Part shown: one piece after another, positions 8,652-52,143 of the stretch | How the letters are laid out: the number at the start of each line of letters is the position of its first letter | Numbering within the stretch: the stretch's first letter is position 1 | Origin: an uncultured Actinomycetes bacterium | GTDB lineage: Bacteria > Actinomycetota > Actinomycetes > S36-B12 > GCA-2699445 | DNA length: 64,000 nt | Assembly: GCA_964510455.1 (NCBI GenBank) | Contig: CAZECO010000002.1 | Location: forward strand, 2,743 to 66,742 | Direction of reading: 5' to 3' | Made by a program: the position numbers and the translations under genes | Notes under the pieces: generated by a model | Told to the model about the DNA's origin: nothing | Databases searched by the model: none | The model's input: the letters and a program-made list of their open reading frames with translations, nothing else

Positions 8652-8655
8652 GAAT

Positions 8656-9768: not shown

Positions 9769-9769
9769 G

Positions 9770-22989: not shown

Positions 22990-24122
22990 TGGTCCTCCTC
23001 GCCGATCGGTGCGTCATCCTCGGGATTGTTGTGGGCGCCGGTATCGACGCTGCGCAGGAACTCGATCAGGTAGCGCCAGGTGGTGTCGCGGGCGCGGCTG
23101 CCGGTGAGGACCCCCAGGTGCCCGCCCGGCGCGGTCTCCAGCCGGACGTGCGGCGAGTTCGGCACGAGTTCCCCGATGCGGTGCGCGGATCCCGGCGGCG
23201 CGAAGAAGTGGTCGCCCTGACCGGCGATGTTCATGACCGGGACATCGACGTCCTCCAGTTGGAGCGTGCGCCCTCCCTTCAGCGTCATCCGGCCCGACGA
23301 CAGGTGGTTGGTCCGGATGAAGGTGTGGTAGATCTGAGCGATGCTGCGGCCGGGATAGGCCTCGATCTCGTCCATCATCGCGTCGACCGCCTGGATCTGG
23401 GCGAGCGTCTCCGTATTGCCGCGGTACTTGAAGACCGTGATCGGCTTCTTCAACTGCTTGTCCGGGGACAGCCACTTGAAGATGATCGAGTTCGCCTTGC
23501 CCGGCACTCCGCCCAGCACGCGCACCAGGCCGGTGGTGAGCACCCCCTTGCTCTTGTCCTCCAGGATCCTCACCGGCTCCAGCATCTTGACCTGCTTGAA
23601 GTCGAACGGGCTGGCGACCGTCGCCACCGAAGCGATCGGAAGGTCGGGGTGGGCGGCGTCGGTGAAGACTCCGAGGATCCCGCCGAGGCACCAGCCGACC
23701 AGTTGCACGGGCTTGCCGCCCGAGTCCTCGCTCACAGTGCGGATGGCGTGCGGCACCACCTCGTCGATCCAGTACTCCAGGCCGAGGTCGGAGTCGTGCA
23801 TGCTGCTGATGTCGCCGTAGTCCACCAGGTACAGCGGCCTGCCCTGTTCCAGGAGGAACTCCACCAGCGAGCAGCCCCTGCGCAGGTCGAAGGAGACGGC
23901 GGTTCCGCCCATCGGGGGGACGATCAGCGTCGGGAGTGCGTCGGCGTCGGTCGGGGCCATCGGCGTGTACCGGCGGACCGTGCCCTTCGGGATCTCGGCG
24001 ATGACGTCGGAGGGCATCCGCTCCAGATCGGCGAATCCATCGCCGACCCAGTGCTGGAACAGGTTCTTGATCTCGCCGACAATCGCGTCCGTGTCCGGTT
24101 GCGGCAGATAGTTCGTCGCCAT
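22986..24122 (-). CDS. Alpha/beta hydrolase resembling class III PHA synthase (PhaC-like)
   Basis: 378 aa from the ATG at 24122. Has the lipase-box variant with Cys, GWCLGG (G-x-C-x-G-G), as in PhaC, and a later H in GGHLGV. Confidence 0.7.
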   Translation of the reverse strand: MATNYLPQPDTDAIVGEIKNLFQHWVGDGFADLERMPSDVIAEIPKGTVRRYTPMAPTDADALPTLIVPPMGGTAVSFDLRRGCSLVEFLLEQGRPLYLVDYGDISSMHDSDLGLEYWIDEVVPHAIRTVSEDSGGKPVQLVGWCLGGILGVFTDAAHPDLPIASVATVASPFDFKQVKMLEPVRILEDKSKGVLTTGLVRVLGGVPGKANSIIFKWLSPDKQLKKPITVFKYRGNTETLAQIQAVDAMMDEIEAYPGRSIAQIYHTFIRTNHLSSGRMTLKGGRTLQLEDVDVPVMNIAGQGDHFFAPPGSAHRIGELVPNSPHVRLETAPGGHLGVLTGSRARDTTWRYLIEFLRSVDTGAHNNPEDDAPIGEEDQ

Positions 24123-24325
24123 GGCAGAACGGTAGTGCGGGCGGCGTGCTCCATGCGCTGCAAGGGCCGATGGAGTGTCGATCCGGACGCCGGCGGGTCG
24201 CAGCGGCCCGCGGCTCGGACCGTCCTGCGAGCCCTGCGCGCGGGGCTGGCGTGCCGCTTCCCTCTCCGGCTGCGCGGGCCGGGCATCGGTCGCGGCGACC
24301 GGTTGCAGCGGCGGGGCTGCGAGGA

Positions 24326-24529
24326 CCTGCACCCGCTGCGGGGCGGATCCGGCCTGAGTCTGCACCCGGTCCCTCTTTGCACCCGTCGAGGGGGCGGATC
24401 GCCCGCGACAGACCGCAGGTAACCCGCGCTGCGGGCGCAAAGCCCCGAAACGGTGCATCAACCGGCCACGAACCACCGGAACACCCCCCGGGGGGCGGGT
24501 GCAAACCCCGGCCGAGCGGGTGCAGACTC
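24326..24529. repeat. Cluster of TGCACCCG-core repeats forming a long imperfect inverted repeat
   Basis: GAGTCTGCACCCG (24356-24368) and TTTGCACCCG (24376-24385) recur inverted as CGGGTGCAAA (24496-24505) and CGGGTGCAGACTC (24517-24529). CCTGCACCCGCTG also occurs at 24326-24338. Confidence 0.75.
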
Positions 24530-24629
24530 GCCCGACCGCCTGCAAGATTCCGAAGCACATCGGGTGGACTGCCGCCGGTTCTGGCAGATCGGCGGCAACA
24601 CCCCTGACCCGAACCAGCCCCGAGCCCGG

Positions 24630-26105
24630 CTACGACCCGGCGAGCCGGTCGAGCAGAGCGTCGAGGTCGACCAGAGCGACGCGGATCGAGGAGTCGCTGC
24701 ACCCGTAGGGCAGCACGAGGGTGCGGCCGTGGATCATCGATCCGCACGAGTAGGTGACGTTCGGGACATAGCCCTCGCGCTCGTCGGCGTTCGGTGCCAG
24801 GAGTGGCTCGGGCAGCGTCCCCACGACGGCGCGGGGATCGTGCAGGTCCAGCAGCATCGCGCCGATGCCGTACTGCCTGACCGGGCCTACTCCATGGGTG
24901 AGCACCAACCATCCGGCCGCTGTCTCCACCGGCGAGCCGCAGTTGCCCACCTGGATGAGCTCCCATGGCTGCGATGGCCGATGCACGGTGGCGGAGGGCT
25001 CCCAGTGGGAGAAGTCGGATGATTCGGCCAGGCTCGATGTCTCGCGGTCCCACCGCGACAGGGCGACGTACCGGCCGCCCACCGGGCGCGGGAACAGCGC
25101 CATCCCCTTGTTCTGCGCCGCCCGCCCGCTGGACTGCCCGACGGCGAACGTGCGGAAGTCGCTGGTCTGCAATTGCGCCGGGGCGACCCGGACCCCGTCG
25201 AACGCGGTGTAGGTCCCCCGGTACGTCGTGGAGCCGTCCGTATCGGTGAACCGGACCAGCCGCAGATCCTCCAGCCCGTGGCTCTCGGCGGGCCCGGTGG
25301 GGAGGATCACCCGCTCATCGATCGTCGACCCCTGGGGGAAGGCGAGCCCGTAATGCGAGTCGGCGATCCGTTCCAGCCGCTGCACCACGACAGCCGCCGG
25401 GCCGCGGGTCAGGCTCTGCGCGCGCAGGCCGGCCATCGCCCGGTCCAGCGCCGGGCGGTCGAAAGCATCGGGCAGCTCGTCGAGCACGTACGCCGCGGCC
25501 GCGTAGTCGTCCTCGGCCCGCAGTCCGAGCTGTTGGGCGAACAGGGTCTTGGAGTACGTCGCCGCAGTAGGGACCGCCTGCGCCAGCGGTCGGCCCGGCT
25601 CGTCGAACCGGAGTTGATCGCCGGCGTCGATGGTGCCGGTGCGGAATCCGATGCTCGAGATGTGGCCCTCTCCGACCCCCCGCACGCTCATCAGGAACCT
25701 CGTTGCGCCCGGCGGCAGGCCGTGCTGGTCGGGATGGGCGACCATCGATGGGTTGAACAGGGCCGCCGACTCGACCGCATACTCCTGCGTGAAGTACGCG
25801 CCGGCCAGCTGCTGCCGGCTCGCGGAGAGGGAACCGGGATCCTCCAGCCGGTGGGCGATCAGCCCGAACCGGGCGTCGAACGTCTCGACGAGATCCCGGT
25901 GCCGGGGTCCGAAGGCGCTGATCGCCTGGTCCAGCGCACTCTCCACCTGTGCGTCGGTCAGCGCCAGGATCCGATCCAGGACCGATGTCGCGCGGGAAAC
26001 CCCGGCGGTCATCATCTCCTGGCCGGGAAGGAACAGCGTGGTGACCACGCGCCGCGGGTCCGGGCGGAGGATGTGATCCGTCCGCACGACCAGCGGCCGG
26101 TTCAC
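24630..26105 (-). CDS. GH130-like glycosidase/phosphorylase with an N-terminal extension
   Basis: 491 aa from the GTG at 26105 (GTGA overlap). The C-terminal beta-propeller-like region reads NKGMALFPR...WLVLTHGVG...YGIGAMLLDL..P...EREGYVPNVTYSCG. Confidence 0.7.
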   Translation of the reverse strand: MNRPLVVRTDHILRPDPRRVVTTLFLPGQEMMTAGVSRATSVLDRILALTDAQVESALDQAISAFGPRHRDLVETFDARFGLIAHRLEDPGSLSASRQQLAGAYFTQEYAVESAALFNPSMVAHPDQHGLPPGATRFLMSVRGVGEGHISSIGFRTGTIDAGDQLRFDEPGRPLAQAVPTAATYSKTLFAQQLGLRAEDDYAAAAYVLDELPDAFDRPALDRAMAGLRAQSLTRGPAAVVVQRLERIADSHYGLAFPQGSTIDERVILPTGPAESHGLEDLRLVRFTDTDGSTTYRGTYTAFDGVRVAPAQLQTSDFRTFAVGQSSGRAAQNKGMALFPRPVGGRYVALSRWDRETSSLAESSDFSHWEPSATVHRPSQPWELIQVGNCGSPVETAAGWLVLTHGVGPVRQYGIGAMLLDLHDPRAVVGTLPEPLLAPNADEREGYVPNVTYSCGSMIHGRTLVLPYGCSDSSIRVALVDLDALLDRLAGS

Positions 26106-27115
26106 GTGGCCGCCACGAGCGCCGTGCGCGAGGCGATCTGCAGGGTGGACAGTGCGGCAAGCGTCGACTCGGCGCCCTGGTTCAGGTTGATGCGATCGGC
26201 ATGCAGCCCGTCGGAGCACCCGCCGGTCGAGGCGTCGTAGAGCGCCAGCCCCAGGTCGTTGGCGCCGAGGAACCAGTCGGCGCAGCTGTGCACCGCGTCG
26301 TTCCAGTGCGGCTCCCCGGTCAGTTCGTGGGCCCGCCAGCAGGCCTCGGCGAGGGCGGCCACCTCGATCGGCTGCTGGTCGAACCCGGGCCTGGCCTCAC
26401 CGGGCGCCCAGCCTCCGGCGGGGACCACGCTGATGCGGCCGTCGCGGGTCTGCAGGTCGAGCAGCCAGGTCAGCAGCGCCACCCCGTCGCGCACCATCGC
26501 CGAGTCGTCCAGCGCCGCGCCGATCGCCATGAGCGCTTCGGGGATGACCGCGTTGGCATAGGTGAGCCGTGGCTCGATCCACGGCCAGGCCGCCTCGCCC
26601 GACGGGCGCGGAAGCATGGCACGGGCGTCGCGGAGCAGCCGGATCGCAGCTCGGTGGCCGGGTCGGGCGTTCAGCACCTCGACGGCTCCGAGCGCCGCGT
26701 AGGCCATGGACCGCGGCCATGGGGACCTGGCCCGCATGGCCCGGGCCGCCACGGCCTGCGTCTGCTCGCGGGTCTCGCCCTCCGTGAGGGCCGCCGCGGT
26801 GCCCAGGGCCCACAGCGCCCTGCCCCAGTGGTCGCCGACGCTGGTGGTGTCCGACCAGGAGCCGTCGATTCGGCGCCGGTTGTGGAAGGCTCCCCGGCTG
26901 TCCTGAGCCTTGACCGTGAACCGCAGGTAGGACTGGACCATCGCCCGCGCGGCCCGGGGCGGATCGGGCTGCCGGACCGCGACGAGGAGTCCCCGCGACA
27001 CGTCGTCCAGGCAGTACCCGTGCTCCAGACGGGGGACGGTGAGTCGTGCGTGCTCGAACAATCCCAACGGGGTGGTCAAGCGTTCGAGGTGGTCGAACCG
27101 GGGCTCGGGAAGCAT
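26102..27115 (-). CDS. Conserved hypothetical protein (possible alpha/alpha-barrel glycan-binding/hydrolase fold)
   Basis: 337 aa, translationally coupled on both sides within the GT4...GH130 operon. Confidence 0.65.
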   Translation of the reverse strand: MLPEPRFDHLERLTTPLGLFEHARLTVPRLEHGYCLDDVSRGLLVAVRQPDPPRAARAMVQSYLRFTVKAQDSRGAFHNRRRIDGSWSDTTSVGDHWGRALWALGTAAALTEGETREQTQAVAARAMRARSPWPRSMAYAALGAVEVLNARPGHRAAIRLLRDARAMLPRPSGEAAWPWIEPRLTYANAVIPEALMAIGAALDDSAMVRDGVALLTWLLDLQTRDGRISVVPAGGWAPGEARPGFDQQPIEVAALAEACWRAHELTGEPHWNDAVHSCADWFLGANDLGLALYDASTGGCSDGLHADRINLNQGAESTLAALSTLQIASRTALVAAT

Positions 27116-28212
27116 CAGGCCACCGATTCGGTTGCTCGGGCGGTCAGCTGTCGCGCCGACTGGATGTAGTGCCGCGCCACCGCCGGCCAGAGCAGGCCGG
27201 GGGCGAGCTCGCGCGCCATCGCTGCCATGCCATCGGCCAGGCCCGGCTCGGTCAGCACCCGGCGCAGGGCCCCGGTGATGGCCGATGGATCGCGTTGCGG
27301 AACCAGGAGCCCGGCGCCACCGCCGAGCAGTTCGATGGCGTGCGGGAAGCTGGTGGAGACCACGGGCTTCCCTGCGACGACAGCCTCGGTGAGCACCCCG
27401 GAGGTGACCTGGTCGCGCGAGTCGTACGGAAGCAGGATGATGTCGGCAGCACGCACGATCGCACGCAGCGAGGCCCCGTCGAGGTATCGGTTGTCGAAAT
27501 GCACGGATTCGGCGAGGCCCGACCCGGCGACCTGCTCGAGCAGCGCCCGTCGGTAGGCCTCGCCCTCCCGCTCCAGCACCCGCGGATGGGTCTGGCCAAC
27601 CACCTGGTAGCGCGGACGGGGGTCCAGATCAGCCAGTCCGGTCATCGCCTCCAGCGCCCATTCGATGCCCTTGCCCTGGCCGATCAGGCCCCACGTGAGA
27701 ATCGTGGGCCGGCGGCGGCCGATGATCGGCCCGACCGGAACGGGGCGCCGACGGGCGGTGGCCCGGTTGTCCTCGGCGCCGTGGGCGATCACGATCACCT
27801 TGGATTGCGGGACATCCCATCCGTCGAGGAGCCGCTGCCGGGCGGTGCGCGTCATGGTGACCACGAGCGAGGACGCCTCGACGACCTCATCCAGCACGCG
27901 CCACTGGTTGGGGGTGGGCTCGGTCAGCACGGTGTGCAGGACGGAGATGACCGGGACCCTGGTCTCGGCCAGCACCCTCAGCACGTCTGCGCCGTCGGGG
28001 CCGCCGAAGATGCCGTACTCGTGCTGGATGACCGCGACGTCGTAGGAGTTCAGCGCGGCGGCGGCCCGGCTCTCCGCGCCGGGGCGGCCCGTCACCAGCT
28101 GATGGGCGACCAGCGGCTCGTCGGGCTGCGGAGCATCGACGACACGGACGATCCCGACGTCGGCGCCGGCCCCGCAGAGGTGCGTCACCAGGGCCTGGGT
28201 GAAGGTGGCCAA
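27115..28212 (-). CDS. GT4 family glycosyltransferase
   Basis: The 365-aa ORF starts at the TTG at 28212. It has the GT-B C-terminal pattern (LLPYDSRDQVTSGVLTEAVVAGKPVVST). The conserved GT4 N-terminal strand GILSTYPPTQCG is encoded in frame upstream of the first canonical start (see finding). Confidence 0.8.
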   Translation of the reverse strand: MATFTQALVTHLCGAGADVGIVRVVDAPQPDEPLVAHQLVTGRPGAESRAAAALNSYDVAVIQHEYGIFGGPDGADVLRVLAETRVPVISVLHTVLTEPTPNQWRVLDEVVEASSLVVTMTRTARQRLLDGWDVPQSKVIVIAHGAEDNRATARRRPVPVGPIIGRRRPTILTWGLIGQGKGIEWALEAMTGLADLDPRPRYQVVGQTHPRVLEREGEAYRRALLEQVAGSGLAESVHFDNRYLDGASLRAIVRAADIILLPYDSRDQVTSGVLTEAVVAGKPVVSTSFPHAIELLGGGAGLLVPQRDPSAITGALRRVLTEPGLADGMAAMARELAPGLLWPAVARHYIQSARQLTARATESVA

Positions 28213-28543
28213 GCCGCATTGCGTGGGTGGGTAGGTGCTGAGGATGCCGAATGATGGGCCGATGGCCGAGCCTTCCGTGGGGTGGAGCTGCGCAGCACGA
28301 TCGCTGCCGAACCTGGGCGGGGCCCGTGCTCATCCCCGGGGCGAAGGCCTCTTCGAGGCGGCGCCGCGCGCCGATCCAACCTGGCTGGACCGACAATTGG
28401 ACAGTACCACGGGGGGTATTCGCCCCGGCCGGACCGATGAGGGCCTGGACGGGCGTTGGCCTGCGGGGCGGAGTGTCGGGCGGCGGCGGCATGGTGGATC
28501 GTGGGACCGGGGCGGGGGCCGGTCCGACGGGGTCGGCGGATAG

Positions 28544-28626
28544 CTGCACCCGTTGCGGGGCTTGCTCCTGCAGCGTGGGCTCCCTGCCGCGTATCGGGGG
28601 CGATCCAACCCCGCAGACGGGTGCAA
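28544..28626. repeat. Hairpin-forming pair of TGCACCCG-core repeats
   Basis: CTGCACCCGTTGCGGGG (28544-28560) and its near-inverse CCCCGCAGACGGGTGCAA (28609-28626). Confidence 0.7.
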
Positions 28627-28843
28627 CGAGCCAGCCGGTGCCTTCTGGCGCCCGCCGGCGGGAACGGGAGCCACGGCGCACCCGCGGGCCGGCAGCCCCG
28701 TGGCCTCGCCAGCGGGAACGGCACGCCAGCCAGGCGCCGCGCGGGATTCGGGTTGCCTCTTGTCTGCCGGTGCCTTCCCGAATGTGCGGGCCACCTCCAC
28801 CGGCGTTCCGCCCCGGCCGAGACACACGCCTACACCGAGCGAC

Positions 28844-30709
28844 CTAATGCGTCGCGGACAGGTGGTCCGCCAGGAAGCGGACGATGGCGGAGGCCAGCCG
28901 TCTGCGGGAGTCGACCCGGTGGAAGACGTGGCCTTCGCCGGGCAGCTCGAGGTAGGTCACGGGGCGTCCGAGCTCCCTCAGCCGCGCCACGAGCTGCTGC
29001 GCCTCGCCGATCGGCACGTTGGTGTCGAGCTCGCCGTGCACCACCAGCAGCGGGACGTCGATCGCCTCGGCGCTGGCAAGCGGAGAGATGTCCTCCAGCA
29101 GCGCGCGATCCTTCTCGGGATCGCCGTACTTCGTCACCGCGGCCGCGGCGATCCACGGCTCGGTGTCCCGGTAGAAGGTGAGCAGGTCCGACATCCCGCA
29201 GATGTCGATGCCGGCGGCGAAGACCCCGGGGGAGAAGGCCAGCGAGGCGAGGGCGAGGTAACCGCCGTACGACCGGCCGGTGACGGCGATCCGCGCCGGA
29301 TCGGCGAGACCCTCGGCCACGAGATGGTCCGCCGCGGCGAGGACATCGTCGAAGGCGGCGTACCGGCCGTGCAGGTCGTCGGCGTGCACGAACTCGCGGC
29401 CGAAGCCGGAGGAGCCGCGGATATTGGGCGCGAACACGGTGACCCCGGCCGCCGCCAGGGCCTGGTGGTGCGGGTCGAACGAGGGCCTCTCCTGGGCCTC
29501 CGGGCCTCCGTGCAGGCTCAGCGCGGCGGGTCCTGCCCCGGTGGCGCCCGCGGGGCGGTACAGCCAACCGGTCAGGGCGAGGCCGTCCCGCCCGGAGAAT
29601 GTCTCGAGGGTCGGCACCACCAGCACCCGTTCGGGCACCTCGGGATCGTCGGTCACCCGGGTCCAGGCGCCGGTGCGGGTGTCCAGGTGCCACAGCTCGC
29701 GGGGGGAGCGCGGCCCCTCGACGCTGAGCAGGACGGCGCTCCCGTCGCGGCTGAGCACCGGCGTGGAGGCCATCCGTCCGGGCAGCCCGGCCACGGGTGC
29801 GATCTGGTGTGTTGTCGTGTCGAAGAGGTCGAGCTCGCACGAACCGGCCACGTTCCAGACCAGCAGCAGCAGACGGCCGGCGTCGTCGGCGTCCACCCAC
29901 TCCAGGTCTGCGTCGTCGCGGGCCGCGAGCGTGCGCAGTTCGCCGCGCCAGCCGTTCGGGCCGAACGGCAGGCCGAGGAGCTGGCGGCGGGGCAGGCCCA
30001 CGTCGGAGGCCAGGTAGACGTAGACCGGACCGGAGTGGTCCTCGGGCGCGGGTCGCACCAGGGCCACCTCGGTCGACCCGGTGGCGCCGGCCGGCAGCGC
30101 GCTGAAGCCCCGGCCCAGGAGGCGGTCGAAGATCGTGACGAACTGCTGCCCGCGCTCGCCGTCGCGGATGACGAGGAAGCGCTCCTCGACGGAGATGTCG
30201 AGGACGTGGATCAGCTGCCCGGAGGTGAGCGGGTCGAGCTGGCCGGTCGCCGGATCTGCCAGGTAGGCCGTGGTCGGGCGGTCCGGACCGACTCCCGGGA
30301 ACGTGATCACGAAGTGATGACCGCTGCGGCTCCACGGACCCAGCTCCGCGTGCGTGTCGGCATCGCCGGCGATGCGCCGCGCGTCGGTGCCGTCGGGGCG
30401 GACCACCCACACCTGGGTGCGCACCCCCCCGTCCGTCGCCACGGCGCAGGCCAGCCAACGGCTGTCGGCCGCCCAGCGGACGGCGACCACCGGGTCGGCC
30501 GAGAGCGGCAGGTGCCGGGCGGGCGCCGGCGGGCCGTCGAGAACGACATCCTGGACCCACAGCTGCGGGATGCCCGACCGGTCGCTGATGAACGCGACCC
30601 GACGGGCGTCCGGCGTCATGTTCGGGCCCCAACAGCCCCAGGCGTCGACGAGCGTCTCCGCGAGGGCGACCGCCTCCTCGACGGTGGTGGTGGGCGCCTG
30701 CGTCGTCAC
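28844..30709 (-). CDS. S9 family serine peptidase (prolyl oligopeptidase/DPP type) with an N-terminal beta-propeller
   Basis: 621 aa from the GTG at 30709, overlapping the asnB-like stop as GTGA. Has the PD40-like repeat (RVAFISDRSGIPQLWV), the nucleophile elbow GRSYGG, and D...GEGH at the C-terminus. Confidence 0.85.
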   Translation of the reverse strand: MTTQAPTTTVEEAVALAETLVDAWGCWGPNMTPDARRVAFISDRSGIPQLWVQDVVLDGPPAPARHLPLSADPVVAVRWAADSRWLACAVATDGGVRTQVWVVRPDGTDARRIAGDADTHAELGPWSRSGHHFVITFPGVGPDRPTTAYLADPATGQLDPLTSGQLIHVLDISVEERFLVIRDGERGQQFVTIFDRLLGRGFSALPAGATGSTEVALVRPAPEDHSGPVYVYLASDVGLPRRQLLGLPFGPNGWRGELRTLAARDDADLEWVDADDAGRLLLLVWNVAGSCELDLFDTTTHQIAPVAGLPGRMASTPVLSRDGSAVLLSVEGPRSPRELWHLDTRTGAWTRVTDDPEVPERVLVVPTLETFSGRDGLALTGWLYRPAGATGAGPAALSLHGGPEAQERPSFDPHHQALAAAGVTVFAPNIRGSSGFGREFVHADDLHGRYAAFDDVLAAADHLVAEGLADPARIAVTGRSYGGYLALASLAFSPGVFAAGIDICGMSDLLTFYRDTEPWIAAAAVTKYGDPEKDRALLEDISPLASAEAIDVPLLVVHGELDTNVPIGEAQQLVARLRELGRPVTYLELPGEGHVFHRVDSRRRLASAIVRFLADHLSATH

Positions 30710-32496
30710 GAGGCCGAGCCCTCCACCTTCTGCAGCCACATCTCCAACAGCGCCAGTTGCCACAGCGCGTTGGAGCCCAAGGTCGTGCGGGCGGCGTTCG
30801 GATCTCGCAGCATGGCGTCCACCGTATTGGGCCGGAACAGGCCGCGCCGCCTTGCCGCGGGATCGGTCAGTGCTTCGCGGACGCGCTCCAGGTACGGCCC
30901 CTCGAGCTGGCGGATGGCGGGGACGGGGAAGTAGCCCTTGGTGCGGTCGATCACCTCGTCGGGGACGACGCCTCGGCTGGCGCGCTTGAGCACGCCCTTG
31001 CCGCCGTCGGCGAGCTTGAGCTCCGGAGGGATGCGCGCGGCCAGCTCGACGAGCTCGTGATCCAGGAACGGGACGCGGGCCTCCAGCCCCCATGCCATCG
31101 TCATGTTGTCGACCCGCTTCACCGGGTCGTCGACGAGCATGATCGTGGTGTCGTTGCGCAGCGCCGCGTCGACGGCTGTGGCGGCTCCGGGCCGGGCGAA
31201 CCGCTCGGTGATGAACGCGCTGGGCGCGTCGTCGCCGATCAGCCACTCGGGCTGCAGGATGTCCGCCATCGCCGACCAGCGCCGGTCGAAGAACACCCGG
31301 GAGTAGGCCTCGACGGCGTCGCCCCGGGCCGCGCCCGCCAGCGGCGGGTACCAGTCGTAGCCGCCGAGCACCTCGTCGGCGCCCTGCCCGGACTGCACGA
31401 CCTTGACGTGCTTGGAGACCTCCTCGCTGAGCAGGTAGAACGCGACGGCGTCGTGGCTGACCATCGGTTCGCTCATCGCCTCGACCGCGGCATCGATCCC
31501 GGGGAGCAGGCGGGAGGTGTCGATCTCGATGCGGTGGTGGTCGGTGCCGAACCGCCGGGCGACCAGCGACGAGTACTCGAACTCGTCGCCGGACTCCCCG
31601 CCGGCCGACTCGAACCCGATGCTGAACGTCTGCAGACCGGTCTGCCCGCCCTCCGCCAGCAGCGCGACCACGAGGCTGGAGTCGATGCCGCCCGACAGCA
31701 GGACTCCCACGGGAACGTCGGCGACCATCCGCCGCTCGACGGCGACCCGCAGCCGCTCCAGCAGCGCCACCTCCCAGTCGCGGGACGTCCACTCGCTGCG
31801 TTCCTCGTCGCGGGTGAACTGCGGGTCCCAGTAGCGGGTGTCGTAGAAGGTCCCGTCGGCTTCGATGACCCGGACGGTGGCGGGCGGGAGCTTGCGGATG
31901 CCGGTGAAGATCGTGTGCGGGGCGGGCACGACCGAGTGGAACGTCATGTAGTAGGCCAGTGCCGTGGAGTCGATCGAGGTGTCCACGCCGCCGGCTGCGA
32001 CGAGGGCCTGCACCGTGGAGGCGAACCGCAGGCGGCCGGGCCGGGCGTCGAGATACAGCGGTTTGATGCCGAGCCGGTCGCGGGCCAGCACCACCCGGCC
32101 GCGCAGATGCTCGACCACCGCGATGGCGAACATCCCGTGGAAGTGGTCGACGAAGCTCGTCCCCCACTGGGCGTAGGCCTTGAGCACCACCTCGGTGTCC
32201 GACGTCGAGAAGAAGCGGTGGCCGGCGGCGGCGAGCTCTTCGCGCAGCTGCTGGTAGTTGTAGATGATCCCGTTGAAGACGACCGTCAACCCTTCGTGGG
32301 GATCCACCATCGGCTGCGCGCCCAGCGGGGACAGGTCGATGATCGACAGCCGCCGGTGCCCCAGTGCCACCGGGCCGCGGGCCCAGACGCCGGAATCGTC
32401 GGGGCCGCGCTTCTCCAACCGTGCGGTCATCCGCTGCACCGCGCCGACGTCGGCCGCGGCTCCGTCGAAGCGCACCTCACCTGCGAGTCCGCACAC
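30706..32496 (-). CDS. Glutamine-hydrolysing asparagine-synthase-family amidotransferase, NAGGN-amidotransferase-like
   Basis: 596 aa. Begins with the N-terminal nucleophile MCGLAGE and carries the PP-loop LLSGGIDSS. The N-terminal 110 aa closely parallel my recollection of Pseudomonas AsnO/PA3459 (MCGLAGELRFD...ALGHRRL.I.DLS...AQPM...FNG.IYN...DTEV.LK.Y..WG). Confidence 0.85.
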   Translation of the reverse strand: MCGLAGEVRFDGAAADVGAVQRMTARLEKRGPDDSGVWARGPVALGHRRLSIIDLSPLGAQPMVDPHEGLTVVFNGIIYNYQQLREELAAAGHRFFSTSDTEVVLKAYAQWGTSFVDHFHGMFAIAVVEHLRGRVVLARDRLGIKPLYLDARPGRLRFASTVQALVAAGGVDTSIDSTALAYYMTFHSVVPAPHTIFTGIRKLPPATVRVIEADGTFYDTRYWDPQFTRDEERSEWTSRDWEVALLERLRVAVERRMVADVPVGVLLSGGIDSSLVVALLAEGGQTGLQTFSIGFESAGGESGDEFEYSSLVARRFGTDHHRIEIDTSRLLPGIDAAVEAMSEPMVSHDAVAFYLLSEEVSKHVKVVQSGQGADEVLGGYDWYPPLAGAARGDAVEAYSRVFFDRRWSAMADILQPEWLIGDDAPSAFITERFARPGAATAVDAALRNDTTIMLVDDPVKRVDNMTMAWGLEARVPFLDHELVELAARIPPELKLADGGKGVLKRASRGVVPDEVIDRTKGYFPVPAIRQLEGPYLERVREALTDPAARRRGLFRPNTVDAMLRDPNAARTTLGSNALWQLALLEMWLQKVEGSAS

Positions 32497-32497
32497 G

Positions 32498-35035
32498 TCA
32501 TGGCCCTTCGTCGCTCGGTCCGGTCACGATCCAGGTGTCCTTGGCCCCGCCGCCCTGCGAGCTGTTGACGATCAGACTGCCCGCCGGCGCGACCCGCGTC
32601 AGGCCCAGCGGTGCCAGCCGGCAGTCCTCCCGGCCGGGTCCGGTCAGGTACACGAATGCCCGCAGGTCGACGCGCCTCGGCTCGAGCTGCCCCGCCGCCA
32701 GGCACGGCAGCGAGGACAGGGCGACGACCTCCTGCGCGACCCAGCGGGCAGGGTTGGCGGCGATCTCGGCGCGGCGCGAGGCGACCTCGGCCGCGGTGGC
32801 GGCGGGCCCGATGAGCACGCCGGCCCCGCCGAAGCCGTCGACGGGCTTGGTGACCAGCTCCCCGACGCGCGCCAGGACGGTGGTGCGCTCGGCCTCGTCT
32901 GCCGGCCGGTAGGTGGGGACCGACTCGACGGCGGGCCGCTCGCCGAGGTAGTACGTGATCAGCTCGGGCAGGAAGGGGTAGGTGGACTTGTCGTCGGCGA
33001 CCCCGTTCCCGGGCGCATTCGCCAGCACCACCCCGCCGACCGCGGCGACGTCCATGATCTGCGCGCCGATCGCCCGGCCCGAGCCGTCGCGCAGGTCGAT
33101 GAGCTCCCCGTCCAGCCGCAGGTACAGGACGCCGATGGGAACCCCGGTCCTCCGGTGGACCACGGTCCCGCCGGCGATCACGATGTCATCGGGCCGGACC
33201 AGCGCGAGGCCCGCCCCGTCGGCCAGGTGCCGGTGCTCGAACCAGGCCCCGGAGGCGGGGCCGCTGGAGAGCAGAGCAGCGCGGGTGCCGGGCTCGGCGT
33301 GCGCGAGCAGCGTCGAGCGGAGCAGCTCGTAGCCGGCAGCCGGGTGGGCGGTGCCGGGAGGCCTGGGCAGGTCCGGCATGACGTCGTCCATCAGAGCGCG
33401 GACGGCGATGGCGTAGGCGACGCCGCTGGGCGACATGACGTTGTCCTCCAGCACGCGCCAGCCGCCGTACTCGTTGCGGACCAGATCGAACCCCATGATG
33501 GGGGCCCGCACGACGTCCGGGGGAAGCCGGGCGGCTTCGTCCCGCCAGCCCGGGGAGGACTCCACGACGTCGCGGGGGAGGACCCCGTCCCGCAGGATCC
33601 GTTGCTCGCCGTACACGTCGCGGATGAATGACTCGATCGCCCAGGCGCGCTGCGTGAGCCCGACCTCGAGCTCCGCCCACTCGTGCGGCCCCAGGATGCG
33701 GGGGACCAGGTCGACCTCGAACGGCCGGTGCTCCCCGTGGACGACGTAGGTGAGGTCGTTGCGCACGGCCCAGGAATCCCGGGCCTCGGCGCGCTCGGCG
33801 AGCTCGGCGGGTCCATGGGCGACCAGGGCCGTCATGACGTCCCGGTAGGCGGGGCGCACGACGGAGCCGGGGCCCAGGGCCTCGTCCCCTGCCCGCACGC
33901 GGTAGCGGCGCAGCGCCGGCAGGGACGCAGCCGCGTCCGAGGTCCGCCCGTGGCTCTCGGCGACGACCAGCCGCATCACGTCCTCGAGGCTGCCCCGCTC
34001 GGCGTAGGCGGCGCGCTGCCGATCGGCGGAGTTGCCGCGCGCCAGCATCGTCTCGGCCAGTTCGGTGACGGTCTCCCAGTCGCCGAGCTCCTCCAGCTGC
34101 GGCCGCAGCCGGTCCACCAGGTCTCGGACCACCTCGGCCGCCGGCCGCGGCGTCGGGCTGGCGACGCCGTGAACCAGATTGCGCGACAGTCCGCTGCGGG
34201 CGGCCTGCCAGATCGCGGCGCGGTGCAGCGGAGGTGCGGGGGCGGTGAACGGGCTCCCGGCCTCGAGGTCGAGCTCCGCCGCCCGCACCAGGCCGCGGAA
34301 GATGCCCGCGATGAGGACGACGTCGTCCACGAGCGGGCAGGCGTCGCAGACGCGCAGCTCGAGGGTCGGCGCATGCGACGAGGGCCGCACGTCGAAGTAG
34401 GCCATCTTGGCGTCTCCGATGACGCCCGAGGCGATGAGGTCGTCCAGGAGGTCGTCGTACTCGGCCGAGGAGGAGAGCGGGCCGGCCGAGCCTGCCGTGG
34501 GCCACCGCTGCCAGATGATCGTGCGGATGCTGGCGTAGCCGGTGTCGAGCCCGTTCCAGTAGGGCGAACTGGCCGAGAGGGCCAGCAGCACGGGGAGGTC
34601 GGGGGCGATCCGCTGGACGATCTGCACGGCGAGGTCGCGGTCGGAGACTCCCACGTGCACCTGCGTGCCGCAGATCAGCTGCTCGTCCACGAGCAGCCGG
34701 TACTCCTCCTGCATCTTGCTGTAGCGCCCGGTGCTGGTCAGCTCGAAGTCGGCGTGGGTCGACAGGGCGGCGGTGCCGACCGCGGCGATGCCCAGCCCCT
34801 CCGACGCGGCCACGTCGATGACGCCCTTGCGCAGGCGGACGAGTTCGGCACGCAAGTCCGACAGCGACCGGACGACCGGCGTATTCGTCTCAACCGTGGT
34901 CCGCTGGATCTCCGCGGCGTAGGAGTCCTTCGGCAGCCTCGACAACAGCTGCGGGGCCCTGGCCGAGAGCTCCCACAGGTCGAGGTCGATGAGGTGCAAC
35001 TCCTCTTCGGCGCCGAGAGTGAGTTCAGCGCCCAT
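32498..35035 (-). CDS. Fusion protein: GCS2/YbdK-type carboxylate-amine ligase (N) + circularly permuted type-2 ATP-grasp ligase (C)
   Basis: 845 aa. The N-terminal ~370 aa reads TLGAEEELHLIDL...GTQVHVGV...RPSSHAPTLELRVCD, the GCS2 pattern. The C-terminal ~450 aa reads MGFDLVRNEYGGWRVLEDN...ANAPGNGVADDKSTYPF...VTKPVDGFGGAGV...SSQGGGAKDTWIV, the CP_ATPgrasp_2 pattern. Confidence 0.85.
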   Translation of the reverse strand: MGAELTLGAEEELHLIDLDLWELSARAPQLLSRLPKDSYAAEIQRTTVETNTPVVRSLSDLRAELVRLRKGVIDVAASEGLGIAAVGTAALSTHADFELTSTGRYSKMQEEYRLLVDEQLICGTQVHVGVSDRDLAVQIVQRIAPDLPVLLALSASSPYWNGLDTGYASIRTIIWQRWPTAGSAGPLSSSAEYDDLLDDLIASGVIGDAKMAYFDVRPSSHAPTLELRVCDACPLVDDVVLIAGIFRGLVRAAELDLEAGSPFTAPAPPLHRAAIWQAARSGLSRNLVHGVASPTPRPAAEVVRDLVDRLRPQLEELGDWETVTELAETMLARGNSADRQRAAYAERGSLEDVMRLVVAESHGRTSDAAASLPALRRYRVRAGDEALGPGSVVRPAYRDVMTALVAHGPAELAERAEARDSWAVRNDLTYVVHGEHRPFEVDLVPRILGPHEWAELEVGLTQRAWAIESFIRDVYGEQRILRDGVLPRDVVESSPGWRDEAARLPPDVVRAPIMGFDLVRNEYGGWRVLEDNVMSPSGVAYAIAVRALMDDVMPDLPRPPGTAHPAAGYELLRSTLLAHAEPGTRAALLSSGPASGAWFEHRHLADGAGLALVRPDDIVIAGGTVVHRRTGVPIGVLYLRLDGELIDLRDGSGRAIGAQIMDVAAVGGVVLANAPGNGVADDKSTYPFLPELITYYLGERPAVESVPTYRPADEAERTTVLARVGELVTKPVDGFGGAGVLIGPAATAAEVASRRAEIAANPARWVAQEVVALSSLPCLAAGQLEPRRVDLRAFVYLTGPGREDCRLAPLGLTRVAPAGSLIVNSSQGGGAKDTWIVTGPSDEGP

Positions 35036-35449
35036 GCAAGGAATCTAGTCGCGCACGTGCTCGGCTGGGAATGGGCGGGCGGGTGCGAAGTGCGTGCCTG
35101 CGATGTGTCGGGCGTCACAGCAGCGGCCTCGCCGCCGCGCCGGAAAAGGGACGATGCCGCCCAATTGGCTGCCGGCTGGACTATCGTCCCGACGCTGCCC
35201 GGACCAACCCTGTCCGGGCTGGCGACGGGAGGCACGCGGCGGCACAGTCAGTGCGCCGATGCACCTCGGGTGCTTGCACCAGGTCTTGTCGGATACCCCG
35301 AAGCGCCTTCGTGGACGAACCGCCGCCGATGTCAGAGATCTGTACCGGCAGTGTGGCGTCCCGCGCGCTGAGAACCGGCCGCCTCGTTCGATCCAGCCTG
35401 TGCGTGGCCCGGGTCGACAGGTCCCCGAGGTGAGGCCGACGATGGCGGC

Positions 35450-36217: not shown

Positions 36218-36466
36218 ATGGCGACGGTGGGCGTGCGGGAACTGCGGCAGAACGCCAGCGAGATCCTGCGAGCAGTAGAGGCGGGGGAGCCGACGACGGT
36301 GACGGTGGCGGGGCGGCCGGTGGCGCAGATCATTCCGATCCGCGCCGAGCGTTGGACGACGTGGGACAGGGTCCGCTCAGTCTTCGACAGCCCGACCGAC
36401 AATGCCTGGGATGACGAGCGGCGCGAATCCGGCGCACGAGGTCTTGATGATCCGTGGGCGCGTTGA
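36218..36466 (+). CDS. Phd/YefM family antitoxin
   Basis: 82 aa from the ATG at 36218. Reads MATVGVRELRQNASEILRAVEAGEPTTVTVAGRPVAQIIP. Confidence 0.85.
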   Translation: MATVGVRELRQNASEILRAVEAGEPTTVTVAGRPVAQIIPIRAERWTTWDRVRSVFDSPTDNAWDDERRESGARGLDDPWAR

Positions 36467-36846
36467 TGCTGTCCATCCTGGACACGAGCATCCTGATCGC
36501 CGAGCACCCCGAGCCGGTCGCGGGTGAGATCGCGATCAGCGTGGTGTCCGTGGCGGAGTTGCAGTTCGGCGTGCTCGTCGCTCCTGATCATGAGCGCCGC
36601 GCCCATCGCCTGGCTCGGCTCAGTGCCGTCCTGCGGGGTTTCGAGCCGTTGCCCGTCGACGCTGCGGTGGCCGCGAGCTACGGCGAACTCGCCGCCGCGA
36701 CCCATCGAGCCGGGCGCACGTCGAGGGCTCGCAGCCTGGATCTCATGATCGCCGCCACCGCGCACGCGCACGGAGCGCGTCTCGTGACCGCCAACCTCAA
36801 CGACGTCAGCCATCTCGAGGGGCTGATCGAGGTCGTCCCCGGGTAG
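36466..36846 (+). CDS. VapC-type PIN domain toxin
   Basis: 126 aa from the ATG at 36466 (TGATG junction). Reads MLSILDTSILI...AELQFGV...DLMIAATAHAHGARLVTAN. Confidence 0.85.
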   Translation: MLSILDTSILIAEHPEPVAGEIAISVVSVAELQFGVLVAPDHERRAHRLARLSAVLRGFEPLPVDAAVAASYGELAAATHRAGRTSRARSLDLMIAATAHAHGARLVTANLNDVSHLEGLIEVVPG

Positions 36847-36999: not shown

Positions 37000-37053
37000 G
37001 CGTTGATCGCGGCGAACCGCCGCAGCCGTGCGCTGAAGCGCTGCGATCAACGC
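37000..37053. repeat. 54-bp palindromic interspersed repeat, copy B
   Basis: GCGTTGATCGCGGCGAACCGCCGCAGCCGTGCGCTGAAGCGCTGCGATCAACGC. Matches the reverse complement of 15295-15348 at 49/54 positions. Confidence 0.8.
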
Positions 37054-37383
37054 CGCCCAAGCGGAATCGCCGCGCCGGCACGTCGGCCCGGATCCGCCGC
37101 TCACCGCGTTCGGCAGCGCATTCCACTCCGCGGATTCCGAAGCCGAAGGAGCCCTCGATCCAGGACGAGCAGGGGGGCGCGGGGCACGCATCGCCGGGCG
37201 CAGACCTCCGCGCACCCGCCCCGTTCGTCGGCGCTGACCGACCGTTCGTCGCAGGCCGCAAGACCGATCGTGGGCACCGTCGGACCACTCGCCGCAGGCC
37301 CCCGATTTCGCATTCCGAAGGTCCATCCGGCGGGCCTAGCGTCGCAGCACACGGACCAGCAGCCACGACAGGGAGGCCGCGCC

Positions 37384-37737
37384 ATGACCATCATCGAAGG
37401 CCCGCCCAAAGTCGGGGGGCAACCCGACCCGCAGGCCTATCTCATCGCACAACAAAGCCCCCAGTTCGTCGAACTGCGCCGCCGCTACCGGGGTTTCGCC
37501 TTCCCGATGACGGCCGCGTTCCTCGTCTGGTACTTCGCCTTCGTCCTCGCCGCCGTGTTCGCGCCGGACTTCCTGGCGAAGCCGGTGTTCGGGAACATCA
37601 ACGTCGGCATCGTCTTCGGCCTGCTGCAGTTCGTCTCCACCGGCGTCATCACCTGGCTGTACGTGCGGCACGCCAACCGCAGGCTCGACCCGCTGGCGAC
37701 CGAGATCCGTGAGGACCTGGAAGGGATCGTCCGATGA
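37384..37737 (+). CDS. DUF485 (YjcH-like) small membrane protein
   Basis: 117 aa from the ATG at 37384 with two TM helices. Overlaps the actP start by 4 nt. Confidence 0.85.
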   Translation: MTIIEGPPKVGGQPDPQAYLIAQQSPQFVELRRRYRGFAFPMTAAFLVWYFAFVLAAVFAPDFLAKPVFGNINVGIVFGLLQFVSTGVITWLYVRHANRRLDPLATEIREDLEGIVR

Positions 37738-39389
37738 GCGCCATCGCCGCGGCCGACGCCGCGACCACAACGGGCACCGTCGCCGGCAGCCCCTGGCTCA
37801 ACATGGCGATCTTCATCGCCTTCGTGGCCGGGACCATGATCATCGTCATCCGGGCGTCGAAGTCCAACAAGAGCGCCGCCGACTACTACACCGGCGGCCG
37901 CTCGTTCACCGGCGGCCAGAACGGCACCGCGATCGCCGGGGACTACCTCTCCGCCGCGAGCTTCCTCGGCATCACCGGCGCCATCGCGCTGACCGGCTTC
38001 GACGGCTTCCTGTACTCCATCGGCTTCCTGGTGGCGTGGCTGGTCGCGCTGCTGCTCGTCGCCGAACTGCTGCGCAACACCGGCAAGTTCACGATGGCCG
38101 ACGTGCTGGCCTTCCGGATGAGGCAGCGGCCGGTCCGCACGGCAGCTGCCATCTCGACGCTGGCGGTCAGCTTCTTCTACCTGCTGGCCCAGATGGCCGG
38201 CGCCGGCGGCCTGGTCAGCCTGCTGATGGGCGTGACCGGCAACGTGGGGCAGTCGATCACCATCGCCGTCGTCGGCGTGCTGATGATCGTCTACGTCCTG
38301 GTGGGCGGCATGAAGGGCACGACGTGGGTCCAGATCATCAAGGCCGTCCTGCTCATCGCGGGCGCCGGCCTGATGAGCGCGTGGGTCCTGAGCAAGTACG
38401 GCTTCAGCTTGTCGGCCGTGATGGGCGCGGCGGCGGACAACAGCCCGCTGGGCGAGGAGATGCTGCAGCCGGGGGCCAAGTACGGGGCCACGACCCTGAC
38501 GAAGGTCGACTTCATCTCGCTGTCGATGGCGCTGGTGCTCGGCACCGCCGGCCTGCCGCACGTGCTGATGCGGTTCTACACCGTCCCCACCTCCAAGGAT
38601 GCGCGCAAGTCGGTGGTGTGGGCGATCAGCCTGATCGGACTGTTCTACCTGTTCAGCCTGGTGCTCGGCTTCGGCGCCGCCGCACTGGTCGGGCCGGAGA
38701 CCATCATGAGCGCTCCCGGTGCCGCGAACTCCGCCGCTCCGCTGCTGGCCTACGAGCTCGGCGGCACGCTCCTGCTGGGCTTCATCTCCGCCGTCGCGTT
38801 CGCCACGATCCTCGCGGTCGTCGCCGGGCTGACGATCACCGCAAGCGCCTCCTTCGCCCACGACGTGTACGCCAACGTCATCAAGAAGGGGGAGCTGGCC
38901 GCCGACAAGGAGGTCCGGGTCGCACGGATGGCCGCCGTGGTCATCGGTGTGGTCGCCATCTTCGGCGGCATCCTGGCCAAGGACCAGAACATCGCGTTCC
39001 TGGTGGCGCTGGCGTTCGCCGTGGCGGCGTCGGCCAACCTGCCGACCATCCTGTACTCGCTGTTCTGGAGGGGCTTCACCACCCGCGGCGCGGTGTGGAG
39101 CATCTACGGCGGACTGATCACCGCAGTGACGCTGATCGTCTTCTCGCCGGTCGTGTCCGGGAAGCCGATCAACGAGGTCACCGGCAAGAGCGCCTCGATG
39201 GTGCAGGGGCTCGACTTCCACTGGTTCCCGCTGGACAACCCGGCGCTGATCTCCATCCCGGTCGCGTTCTTCCTCGGCTGGCTCGGCAGCGTCACCGACA
39301 AGGAGAAGCCCAACCGGATGAAGTACGCCGAGATGGAGGTCCGCTCGCTGACCGGCGCGGGCGCCGAGAAGTCGGTCGCCGTGCACTGA
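37734..39389 (+). CDS. actP: Cation/acetate symporter (SSS family)
   Basis: 551-aa polytopic protein. Reads GGRSFTGGQNGTAIAGDYLSAASFLGI...GLPHVLMRFYT. Sits in the canonical yjcH-actP-acs context. Confidence 0.9.
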   Translation: MSAIAAADAATTTGTVAGSPWLNMAIFIAFVAGTMIIVIRASKSNKSAADYYTGGRSFTGGQNGTAIAGDYLSAASFLGITGAIALTGFDGFLYSIGFLVAWLVALLLVAELLRNTGKFTMADVLAFRMRQRPVRTAAAISTLAVSFFYLLAQMAGAGGLVSLLMGVTGNVGQSITIAVVGVLMIVYVLVGGMKGTTWVQIIKAVLLIAGAGLMSAWVLSKYGFSLSAVMGAAADNSPLGEEMLQPGAKYGATTLTKVDFISLSMALVLGTAGLPHVLMRFYTVPTSKDARKSVVWAISLIGLFYLFSLVLGFGAAALVGPETIMSAPGAANSAAPLLAYELGGTLLLGFISAVAFATILAVVAGLTITASASFAHDVYANVIKKGELAADKEVRVARMAAVVIGVVAIFGGILAKDQNIAFLVALAFAVAASANLPTILYSLFWRGFTTRGAVWSIYGGLITAVTLIVFSPVVSGKPINEVTGKSASMVQGLDFHWFPLDNPALISIPVAFFLGWLGSVTDKEKPNRMKYAEMEVRSLTGAGAEKSVAVH

Positions 39390-50568: not shown

Positions 50569-52143
50569 CCCCCGCACAAGCCGAGGCGGAACCGCCGAAA
50601 GCCGCGGAGGATCGCCACCCGTCGCGGCGAAGCGCCAGATGTTCGCGGCGCAAGCCGTGCGGCACCAGACGAACACCGCGCGGGTCACCCGGGCCGGCCT
50701 CAGTGTGTATGGGCCGTCGATCAACGGACCGGGGAGCCGGTGAACGTGGACCTGACCGAACACGACGCGTTGGCTTGGCTCAACATCACGAAATGGCGGC
50801 TCTGAAGCTCGCAGACTCCCTCATGCCGAGCCTCTCCGAGGTGGCGTTCCGCTGACCGATCGGAATCCGGCGCCTGCGGTGCGCGTGGCCCGCACCCGGC
50901 CCCACACTGGGGTCGATCGAGCCGCCGACGATTGGATCGTGGACTGCCACACGACAAGCCGGGGACCGCCCGCGTCACTCCGGGCGAAGTGACGCGGCCT
51001 GCTCAGGTTGGCCGCGCGACCCAGACCAGGCTCTTGATTTGCCGGGATCGCGACCGTCACCACAAGCAGCAGCGCAGACGTCCTCGGCCCCCGCTGCGGG
51101 GATCCAGGGCGGCTACACGGACGCGCCAGGGGAGTGATCTGGCCGCAGCGACCACGAGACATGGTTGCCCGCGGCCAGGCATCGTCCCGCCGGCGTCGGG
51201 GGTGCGGGTGGCGAGCCGGTCTGTAAGCCGGGTTCGGGGCTCGCGAGGCAAGTGACCGACAGTCAGCGCTGATGGCGTTGGTTCTGAGCGTGAAACGGGC
51301 ACTTCCGCGACAGTCCGTGAGAGTGACTGTCGAGAGTCTTGCGGACTGTTTGCGGACTGCGGGGCGGTGGACGACGTTTGATCCGGGTGGCAACGAGAGC
51401 CCCGCAGGCCATCCTGGCGCGAGTGACTCAATGCAAGGCCCCTGACGATGAGGCGGCGCCTCCACCGCGAACAGGGGGCTCGCGGGGGTCGCTGCTGCTC
51501 AGACATGAACACGATGGCTCATAATCAGAAATGATGCGCCAAGATCAACACCGCTGTAGGGCAAGGCCTTAAAAGGTTCATCCGTCGGGCGTGATGCACG
51601 GACGTATCCGCTCGGATACGGGGTTTCCGGAGCTACTACACCTCTTGGAGCAGACCCCGCGACGCGGCGGGTCTCTCCCGGGCGGCGCTCGCAGAGCGCT
51701 CCCGGCACGCCGCATCGGCCGCCTTGACGTGCTGCTGCGCCGGCGGCGTCCGGAGGCCTACGGTCTATCGGGGAGCTGGCGCACGCTCTCGCGGACCCCG
51801 ATGACGAGCAGCGAGCCGCCTCAAAACGGGTTCGCCACCGGCTAGATCGAGGCCGAGATTGCCCGAGGGAGCCGCACTCCTCATTCAATATCACAAGGCT
51901 CGTGTCCCGCATCGAGGCGCTGGACCGCGTCAGTATCGGGGTGCCTGACCCACGCTCATCAATCCGGCGGCGAGTAGGGCTGTTCGCGGGGCAAGGATGG
52001 CTTATGACGGTCACGATATGCCACACGCGCAAAGGCTGTTTGCGTGGTGGGTCGGATTCCCGGACGCGGCGGAGCCCAACTGGCAAACTTCTCTTCGTGT
52101 CAAGGAACATCTCGCCGCAGTTCATGCCCGCAGGAGCCTGACC

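Follow-up and report, generated by a model that had tools for sequence, protein, structure and literature searches.

N-acetylglutaminylglutamine amide (NAGGN) belongs to the small number of dipeptide compatible solutes with a solved pathway. The underlying system, known from Sinorhizobium meliloti (SMb20481/SMb20482) and Pseudomonas aeruginosa (PA3459-PA3461) and captured by the families TIGR03104, TIGR03103 and TIGR03106, combines a ligase (Ngg), an amidotransferase (AsnO) and an M42-family metallopeptidase in tight operons. In the loci retrieved from S. meliloti and Azospirillum, the order is asnO-ngg(-M42); Ngg, as the initial annotation of the DNA analysed here had stated, unites GNAT and ATP-grasp, with the GNAT domain first and the ATP-grasp of the classic type. 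This DNA, a 64,000-nucleotide stretch of actinobacterial sequence with a high guanine-plus-cytosine (GC) content of ~72%, referred to below as the window, carries a similarly tight operon of ligase, amidotransferase and peptidase genes (Table 1). Its AsnO is orthologous to that of the NAGGN system and keeps the same conserved residues, whereas Ngg is missing and the ligase joins a GCS2 domain to a circularly permuted ATP-grasp module with no acetyltransferase, the peptidase is a serine enzyme of family S9 in place of an M42 metalloenzyme, and the genes run ligase-AsnO-peptidase, not AsnO-ligase-peptidase.

Judged from sequence comparison, there is roughly an even chance that the operon encodes a compatible-solute pathway of the NAGGN type in which neither ligase nor peptidase is orthologous to its NAGGN counterpart and which is dedicated to a small N-capped peptide amide. 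A GCS2-fold ligase and a glutathione-synthetase-like circularly permuted ATP-grasp would have displaced Ngg, and an S9 peptidase of the acylaminoacyl type would have displaced the M42 enzyme. A one-genome-per-species scan identified at least 373 genomes with a relative of the ligase fusion, and the best 80 loci were examined (hereafter the genome loci). A tblastn search with S. meliloti Ngg gave no match in the window or in these 80 loci, and Pfam and NCBIfam scans of the three window proteins returned neither GNAT nor TIGR03103; with no Ngg or M42 homologue at the operon, the earlier proposal that both ligase and peptidase are non-orthologous to their NAGGN counterparts is upheld.

The link to the NAGGN system runs through the amidotransferase. 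Protein 2 matches Pfam GATase_7 and Asn_synthase and, over residues 1-590, the equivalog family TIGR03104 with 960 bits (cut-off 570). Its identity is 59.4% to S. meliloti AsnO and 59-63% to the Ngg-linked AsnOs of Sinorhizobium and Azospirillum, in contrast with at most 35% to ordinary AsnB, which places it in the TIGR03104 clade, as first suggested from its N-terminus. Across Ngg-linked AsnOs the identity is 59-65%, compared with 64% among those enzymes themselves. No variation affects the Cys2 nucleophile or the SGGxDS PP-loop, and the start codon is fixed by the obligatory Cys2 (V-C-G-L-A-G). When Ngg-linked (n=39) and GCS2/S9-linked (n=42) AsnOs are compared, the same residue occupies 226 of the 227 columns with conservation of 90% or more on both sides. 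The groups are told apart by six positions only (residues 389, 391, 528, 529, 570 and 574); R391, R529 and R570 are arginines gained in the GCS2-linked group, and position 574 is Arg in the Ngg-linked and Gly in the GCS2/S9-linked group. The near-identity of the conserved residues indicates that the amidation chemistry and the contacted part of the acceptor are very probably the same as for N-acetylglutaminylglutamine (NAGG), and the amidated moiety is thus probably NAGG-like. A changed substrate pocket, sought by specificity-determining-position analysis, was set aside, since almost no differences separate the groups. The six positions are candidate contacts for a differently charged N-cap, and it may be speculated that the gained arginines could bind the free carboxylate of a gamma-glutamyl cap.

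Equally informative is the way in which AsnO sorts with its partners. Eighty metagenome loci were sampled by means of an AsnO alignment and their neighbours typed: 37 had AsnO-Ngg(-M42), and 38 had AsnO with GCS2, circularly permuted ATP-grasp and/or S9. The fusion, or its ATP-grasp half at a contig cut, stood upstream of AsnO in 28 loci, with or without S9; other types comprised AsnO-S9 (6 loci), AsnO-S9 with a stand-alone circularly permuted ATP-grasp (2) and GCS2-AsnO (1), while nine loci, mostly on short contigs, had AsnO only. The last of the 38, an aberrant locus, showed an ATP-grasp-like match before AsnO, and its AsnO groups with the Ngg-linked set. Throughout this sample Ngg never occurred with S9, GCS2 never with M42, and no mixed partner set was found; M42 was present in 19 of the 80 loci, all of the Ngg type, and never beside GCS2 or S9. 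In a neighbour-joining tree, the GCS2/S9-linked AsnOs, all but one, form a single clade beside a high-GC Ngg-linked clade, and the window AsnO sits within it. Strict partner sorting combined with one AsnO clade fits a single ancestral non-orthologous displacement of ligase and peptidase.

The ligase itself is a fusion of two families. Its N-terminal part matches Pfam GCS2 (PF04107) at residues 7-283 (158.9 bits), NCBIfam TIGR02050 (253 against a cut-off of 176) and NF010041 (353 against 332); the YbdK structures 1r8g and 1tt4 align to residues 5-353, and Foldseek returns YbdK and the plant glutamate-cysteine ligase 2gwc. With a full-length family match and a conserved catalytic core, including an acidic N-terminal motif (T6-L7-G8-x-E10-E11-E12-x-H14) that is invariant in 50 homologues, as are many other residues, the domain belongs to the GCS2 family. 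The C-terminal module matches the full CP_ATPgrasp_2 model (PF14403, positions 1-374 of 374) at residues 445-816 with 358.6 bits, and its best structural counterpart is 3n6x (E 2.6e-83 over residues 382-837; Foldseek template-modelling score, TM, 0.85). Next come eukaryotic glutathione and homoglutathione synthetases (TM ~0.63), followed by glutathionylspermidine synthetase, YgiC/YjfC and the E-64 ligase Cp1B. The AlphaFold2 model of the fusion has a mean predicted local distance difference test (pLDDT) of 83.4 and a predicted TM score (pTM) of 0.83, and a single open reading frame (ORF) encodes the fusion in each of the 80 genome loci and in each of the 16 divergent metagenome loci checked.

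Two described systems resemble parts of this protein. As in GshF/GshAB, a domain of glutamate-cysteine-ligase (GCL) fold lies N-terminal to an ATP-grasp peptide ligase, and the C-terminal module comes closest in structure to the eukaryotic glutathione synthetases, which are also circularly permuted (GSS of the GshA to GshB/GSS pathway). However, the window fusion unites GCS2/YbdK with CP_ATPgrasp_2, whereas GshF unites GshA with a D-Ala-D-Ala-ligase-like ATP-grasp; their Pfam and NCBIfam families differ, so that the resemblance is one of fold (3ln7, 2hgs), and, unlike the glutathione pathway, the window locus is linked to an amidotransferase and a peptidase. The second relative is the triad of CP_ATPgrasp_2, alpha-E and transglutaminase (Tsukamurella; Mycobacterium tuberculosis Rv2411c-type), whose ATP-grasp belongs to the same family at ~40% identity. 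Both alpha-E and transglutaminase genes are present in the Tsukamurella comparator (locus L085) but absent from the conserved neighbours in the 80 genome loci, where the ATP-grasp is fused to GCS2 instead. Stand-alone CP_ATPgrasp_2 with alpha-E and transglutaminase-like proteins is described as a predicted peptide-modification system in a passage of PMC3597751 relaying Iyer et al. (2009).

The third protein is an S9 peptidase, with a Pfam Peptidase_S9 match at residues 409-618 (162 bits) and NCBIfam matches of TolB/PD40-like propeller type at its N-terminus. The best match in the PDB is the acyl aminoacyl peptidase 5l8s over the full length (E 5.8e-40), and other matches include the Aeropyrum and Deinococcus acylamino-acid-releasing enzymes. 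Its S480 (GRS480YGG), D562 and H594, kept in at least 97% of 41 S9 orthologues, form a Ser-Asp-His triad in an alpha/beta hydrolase domain that a beta-propeller precedes at the N-terminus, the arrangement of subfamily S9C. These closest solved relatives release N-acylated amino acids, which was counted in favour of an N-blocked substrate.

The three genes are a real, translationally coupled operon. Genes 1 and 2 are separated by a 1-nt gap (TGAcGTG, within ...ccaTGAcGTGtgc...), and genes 2 and 3 share a 4-nt GTGA overlap (...tcGTGAcg...). In all three frames GC at the third codon position is 0.87-0.95 and at the second ~0.5, a pattern that marks them as true coding sequence. The initial annotation had thus read the locus correctly in its coordinates and junctions, in the fusion of two ligases in one protein and in the beta-propeller S9 peptidase. 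Chance can be set aside as the origin of the arrangement, because the same order recurs in most of the 80 independent genomes: AsnO lies directly downstream of the fusion in 67 of the genome loci, and AsnO and S9 are both present in 61. These loci come from Geodermatophilaceae, Kineococcus/Quadrisphaera, Microbacteriaceae and Propionibacteriaceae, and all-against-all clustering of their neighbouring ORFs retained only the fusion, AsnO and S9 families. A conserved upstream partner was sought, and the best upstream cluster, present in just 21 of the 80 loci, reflects lineage synteny. Divergent fusions, down to 37% identity and in about eight clusters at 50% identity, extend to Streptomyces/Streptacidiphilus, Corynebacterium, Dietzia, Rhodococcus and Mycobacterium, and Mycobacterium shigaense retains fusion-AsnO-S9 among housekeeping genes. 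The predicted co-conservation of the trio is therefore confirmed, and widely so, while the notion of a fixed set has to be relaxed: GCS2-only, ATP-grasp-only, fusion-plus-S9 and fusion-alone versions also exist.

On the biochemical level, a four-step route may be proposed. The GCS2 domain would activate the gamma-carboxylate of glutamate and join it to an amino acid, probably glutamine, which would yield a gamma-glutamyl cap in place of N-acetyl; the ATP-grasp module would then add a further residue through an acyl-phosphate. AsnO, whose family assignment is firm and whose substrate is presumed, would use ATP and ammonia released from glutamine to turn the C-terminal alpha-carboxylate into a carboxamide, and the S9 enzyme would hydrolyse the N-blocked peptide and so turn the pool over. 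To our knowledge, all characterised ligases of the glutamine-synthetase (GS)/GCL fold (GS, GshA, PuuA, PafA) activate the gamma-carboxylate of glutamate, and glutathione and homoglutathione synthetases extend a gamma-glutamyl dipeptide. This fold-based chemistry, the glutathione-synthetase-like C-terminal module and the acylaminoacyl-type S9 together point to an N-capped, Gln-terminated di- or tripeptide amide, and the cap is probably gamma-glutamyl; without an acetyltransferase, the rest of the acceptor must differ from NAGG or be made differently. A different product of this kind, for example a gamma-glutamyl di- or tripeptide amide, had been advanced in the initial annotation; its chemistry has gained no support beyond such reasoning, and the near-identical AsnO residues narrow the difference that is possible.

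By analogy, the product would most likely act as a compatible solute against osmotic or desiccation stress. This stress-protection role draws on analogy and on host ecology, as the host taxa Geodermatophilaceae, Kineococcus and Dietzia are desiccation- or salt-tolerant, which is soft evidence. In its most specific form, the proposal is that Actinomycetota (among them Mycobacterium, Streptomyces, Dietzia and rock-dwelling Geodermatophilaceae) make a hitherto unrecognised family of gamma-glutamyl-capped glutamine(-yl) amides, with gamma-Glu-Gln-NH2 at GCS2-only loci and gamma-Glu-X-Gln-NH2 at fusion loci as candidates, which would be stress-protective solutes formed by a GshF-like two-ligase fusion with no acetyl-CoA-dependent step; this must be considered tentative and, on balance, doubtful.

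Several observations weigh against the proposed solute pathway or its details. The substrate identities in the four steps are guesses, no GNAT, transporter, regulator or osmosensing element is conserved nearby in the 80 genome loci, and a search for riboswitches and further RNA elements with Rfam at gathering thresholds gave no match across the whole window. In about 12 genomes the fusion has no adjoining AsnO or S9, Quadrisphaera and Dietzia have one or more fusions with S9 and no AsnO, and one Dietzia sp. (CP024869.1, locus L168, 4309-12654) carries two tandem fusions (861 and 872 aa), S9 and an M20 gene, again with no AsnO, which suggests that the ligase product is useful without amidation. 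Conversely, Streptomyces viridifaciens pKVP1 and Nonomuraea gerenzanensis have GCS2-only trios (GCS2-AsnO-S9), and in two loci (L101, 5890-11214, and L099) AsnO is followed by S9 and a separate CP_ATPgrasp_2 of 486 aa, while the 6 kb upstream contain no GCS2; such single-ligase loci make the number and order of ligations uncertain. Finally, the GCS2 domain of the fusion is 50% identical to AsnO-linked stand-alone GCS2 as against 52% to the unlinked GCS2 of Mycobacterium branderi. Altogether, these modular variants imply that the number and order of ligations, as well as the need for amidation, differ between lineages. The S. viridifaciens and Nonomuraea trios share the AsnO clade (63-66% identity), the S9 and GCS2 families (50% for GCS2) and the gene order with the window operon, but lack the ATP-grasp module and would therefore perform one ligation fewer. 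In M. branderi (pJCM12687, locus L083, 5981-9668), the stand-alone GCS2 lies among genes of the CsbD, DUF6131 and DUF5994 families, CsbD being a stress-protein family, and its lack of AsnO linkage shows that the GCS2 family is used in other contexts too.

Among the alternative explanations, the one that survives best, though still unlikely, is that the product is NAGGN itself and the fusion an analogue of Ngg, one domain N-acylating glutamine from acetate and ATP and the other forming the Gln-Gln bond. The conserved AsnO residues, essentially those of Ngg-linked enzymes, would suit this product, as would the design that fusion and Ngg have in common, a capping domain followed by a peptide-ligase domain, and the cleavage after N-acetyl amino acids by S9 acylaminoacyl peptidases; N-acylation from a free small acid by an ATP-grasp enzyme also has a precedent in PurT, which uses formate. 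Yet such a scheme sits poorly with the absence of an acetyltransferase from the window operon and from the conserved neighbours in the genome loci, with GCL/GS-fold ligases being known only for activation of the glutamate gamma-carboxylate, and with the GCS2-only and ATP-grasp-only trios, which have one ligase only. Moreover, Micromonospora provocatoris, the only actinobacterium with NAGGN proven by nuclear magnetic resonance, has a canonical M42 'NAGGN system' peptidase listed in the published supplement; as a candidate carrier of the window locus type it found no support, and since its system is of the canonical M42 type, nothing ties this locus type to NAGGN itself.

It is quite improbable that the operon yields a compound like glutathione amide (gamma-Glu-Cys-X-NH2), a redox peptide or low-molecular-weight thiol made by a GshF-like fusion and amidated at the C-terminus by AsnO. 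The passing score of the GCS2 domain in the 'glutamate--cysteine ligase' subfamily NF010041 would fit it, although that name, for YbdK-type proteins, is based on weak in vitro activity. Likewise, the nearest characterised folds of the C-terminal module are glutathione and homoglutathione synthetases, glutathione amide is known from purple sulfur bacteria, and the fusion-only loci would agree with a useful non-amidated tripeptide. The near-identity of AsnO to NAGG-amidating enzymes, however, favours a Gln-type C-terminus over Gly, Actinomycetota already use mycothiol and ergothioneine, and no reductase or peroxidase is conserved nearby in the genome loci.

Very improbable is a third option, with a macromolecule as the target of the ligases or a specialised metabolite with no link to stress as their product (for instance peptide tags, part of the cell envelope or a signal) and with S9 responsible for processing or removal: the usual company of stand-alone CP_ATPgrasp_2 in the passage of PMC3597751 noted above, protein tagging by the GCS2 relative PafA, and the LuxR regulator and natural-product-type genes adjoining the S. 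viridifaciens GCS2 trio would all be in keeping with it, but the conserved neighbours of the fusion in the genome loci include neither alpha-E nor transglutaminase, nor a gene for a precursor peptide or target, large substrates do not gain access to S9 beta-propeller peptidases, members of the AsnO family have small-molecule substrates, and the M. shigaense trio has a housekeeping setting.

The NAGGN-type solute pathway with displaced partners thus remains the preferred reading, and its wider interest lies in an NAGGN amidotransferase that has acquired two unrelated ATP-dependent ligases and another kind of peptidase as new partners, in a set spread through Actinomycetota. If correct, it would show what some members of two large 'orphan' families, YbdK/GCS2 and circularly permuted ATP-grasp, do in cell physiology, and reveal a new solute class for desiccation- or salt-tolerant actinobacteria. 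The NCBI pipeline annotates these AsnOs as 'N-acetylglutaminylglutamine amidotransferase' and labels the fusions 'carboxylate--amine ligase/circularly permuted type 2 ATP-grasp protein'; if the products are gamma-glutamyl-capped amides, the former label would be wrong on substrate in hundreds of genomes, and a systematic annotation error would be corrected. As a compact three-gene cassette, the operon is open to direct testing by heterologous expression. A literature search, with Iyer et al. (2009) and Sagot et al. (2010) outside its coverage, found no publication describing the gene combination, and within those bounds the locus had not been assigned to a characterised pathway, in line with its initial description as a candidate undescribed system.

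Table 1. Features of the operon, with positions in the window.
Feature	Position	Strand	Description
Gene 1	32498-35035	minus	845 aa, fusion of two ATP-dependent amide-bond ligases
GCS2/YbdK carboxylate-amine ligase domain	33941-35035	minus	residues ~1-365 of protein 1
Circularly permuted type-2 ATP-grasp module	32501-33892	minus	residues ~382-845 of protein 1
Gene 2	30706-32496	minus	596 aa, AsnO-type glutamine-dependent amidotransferase (TIGR03104)
Gene 3	28844-30709	minus	621 aa, cytoplasmic S9 serine peptidase, N-terminal beta-propeller, acylaminoacyl-peptidase type
Candidate -10 promoter hexamer TAGATT	35042-35047	minus	6 nt upstream of the ATG at 35035

Upstream of gene 1, a TANNNT hexamer is kept at the same distance from the start codon in six related loci, the remaining upstream region not being alignable, and no Shine-Dalgarno sequence precedes the ATG. 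This combination suggests that the operon mRNA is probably leaderless. A generic scan for sigma-70 promoter and terminator consensus sequences gave no matches.

Further AsnO loci and relatives of the operon deserve mention. The most divergent TIGR03104-like AsnO seen, at 52-56% identity, lies on Polaromonas naphthalenivorans pPNAP02 (locus L087, 3375-6833), with a gene 16 nt upstream for a 536-aa protein matching nothing in Pfam or NCBIfam, and transaldolase, phosphoglucomutase and phosphoketolase genes downstream; the 536-aa protein may be yet another type of AsnO partner. Papers on Frankia refer to an unusual asnO locus that has a '<15% identical Ngg', giving no usable detail. The closest relative of the window operon (CAZWXF010000098.1, locus L001), at 90% protein identity, belongs to a metagenome-assembled genome labelled 'uncultured Bifidobacteriaceae'; this contig is probably mis-binned, given that the next-closest relatives are Blastococcus and Geodermatophilaceae.

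Downstream of the S9 stop, a GC-rich stretch of 630 bp (28213-28843), unusually long for a gene-dense region, extends to the next gene; the sole ORF checked there (28330-28827, minus) has no Pfam match, and the stretch has no Rfam match. Beyond it, on the minus strand, lie a GT4 glycosyltransferase gene (27115-28212), an ORF (26102-27115, listed at 337 aa) that could not be annotated and a gene for a 529-aa protein (24630-26219) whose C-terminal half resembles GH130 beta-1,2-mannobiose phosphorylases well below the cut-off. These genes (24630-28212) may form a glycoside cluster and are not conserved beside the trio elsewhere; as part of the system they were rejected, being conserved in none of the 80 genome loci and set apart by the 630 bp. 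Further along (21451-24560, minus), two overlapping genes encode a 524-aa alpha/beta hydrolase with weak, sub-threshold matches resembling polyhydroxyalkanoate synthase and a 512-aa protein with no family match. The plus strand carries a VapC-like PIN-domain toxin gene (36454-36846) and, near the operon but read in the opposite direction, a pair (37003-39389) coding for a DUF485 membrane protein and then a monocarboxylate/cation symporter of the MctC type (NF058657, 884 bits, cut-off 670). At the scale of the window, GC falls to 0.62-0.65 at 1-2000, 8001-10000, 52001-56000 and 62001-64000 from a background of ~0.70-0.74, and these segments may have been acquired.

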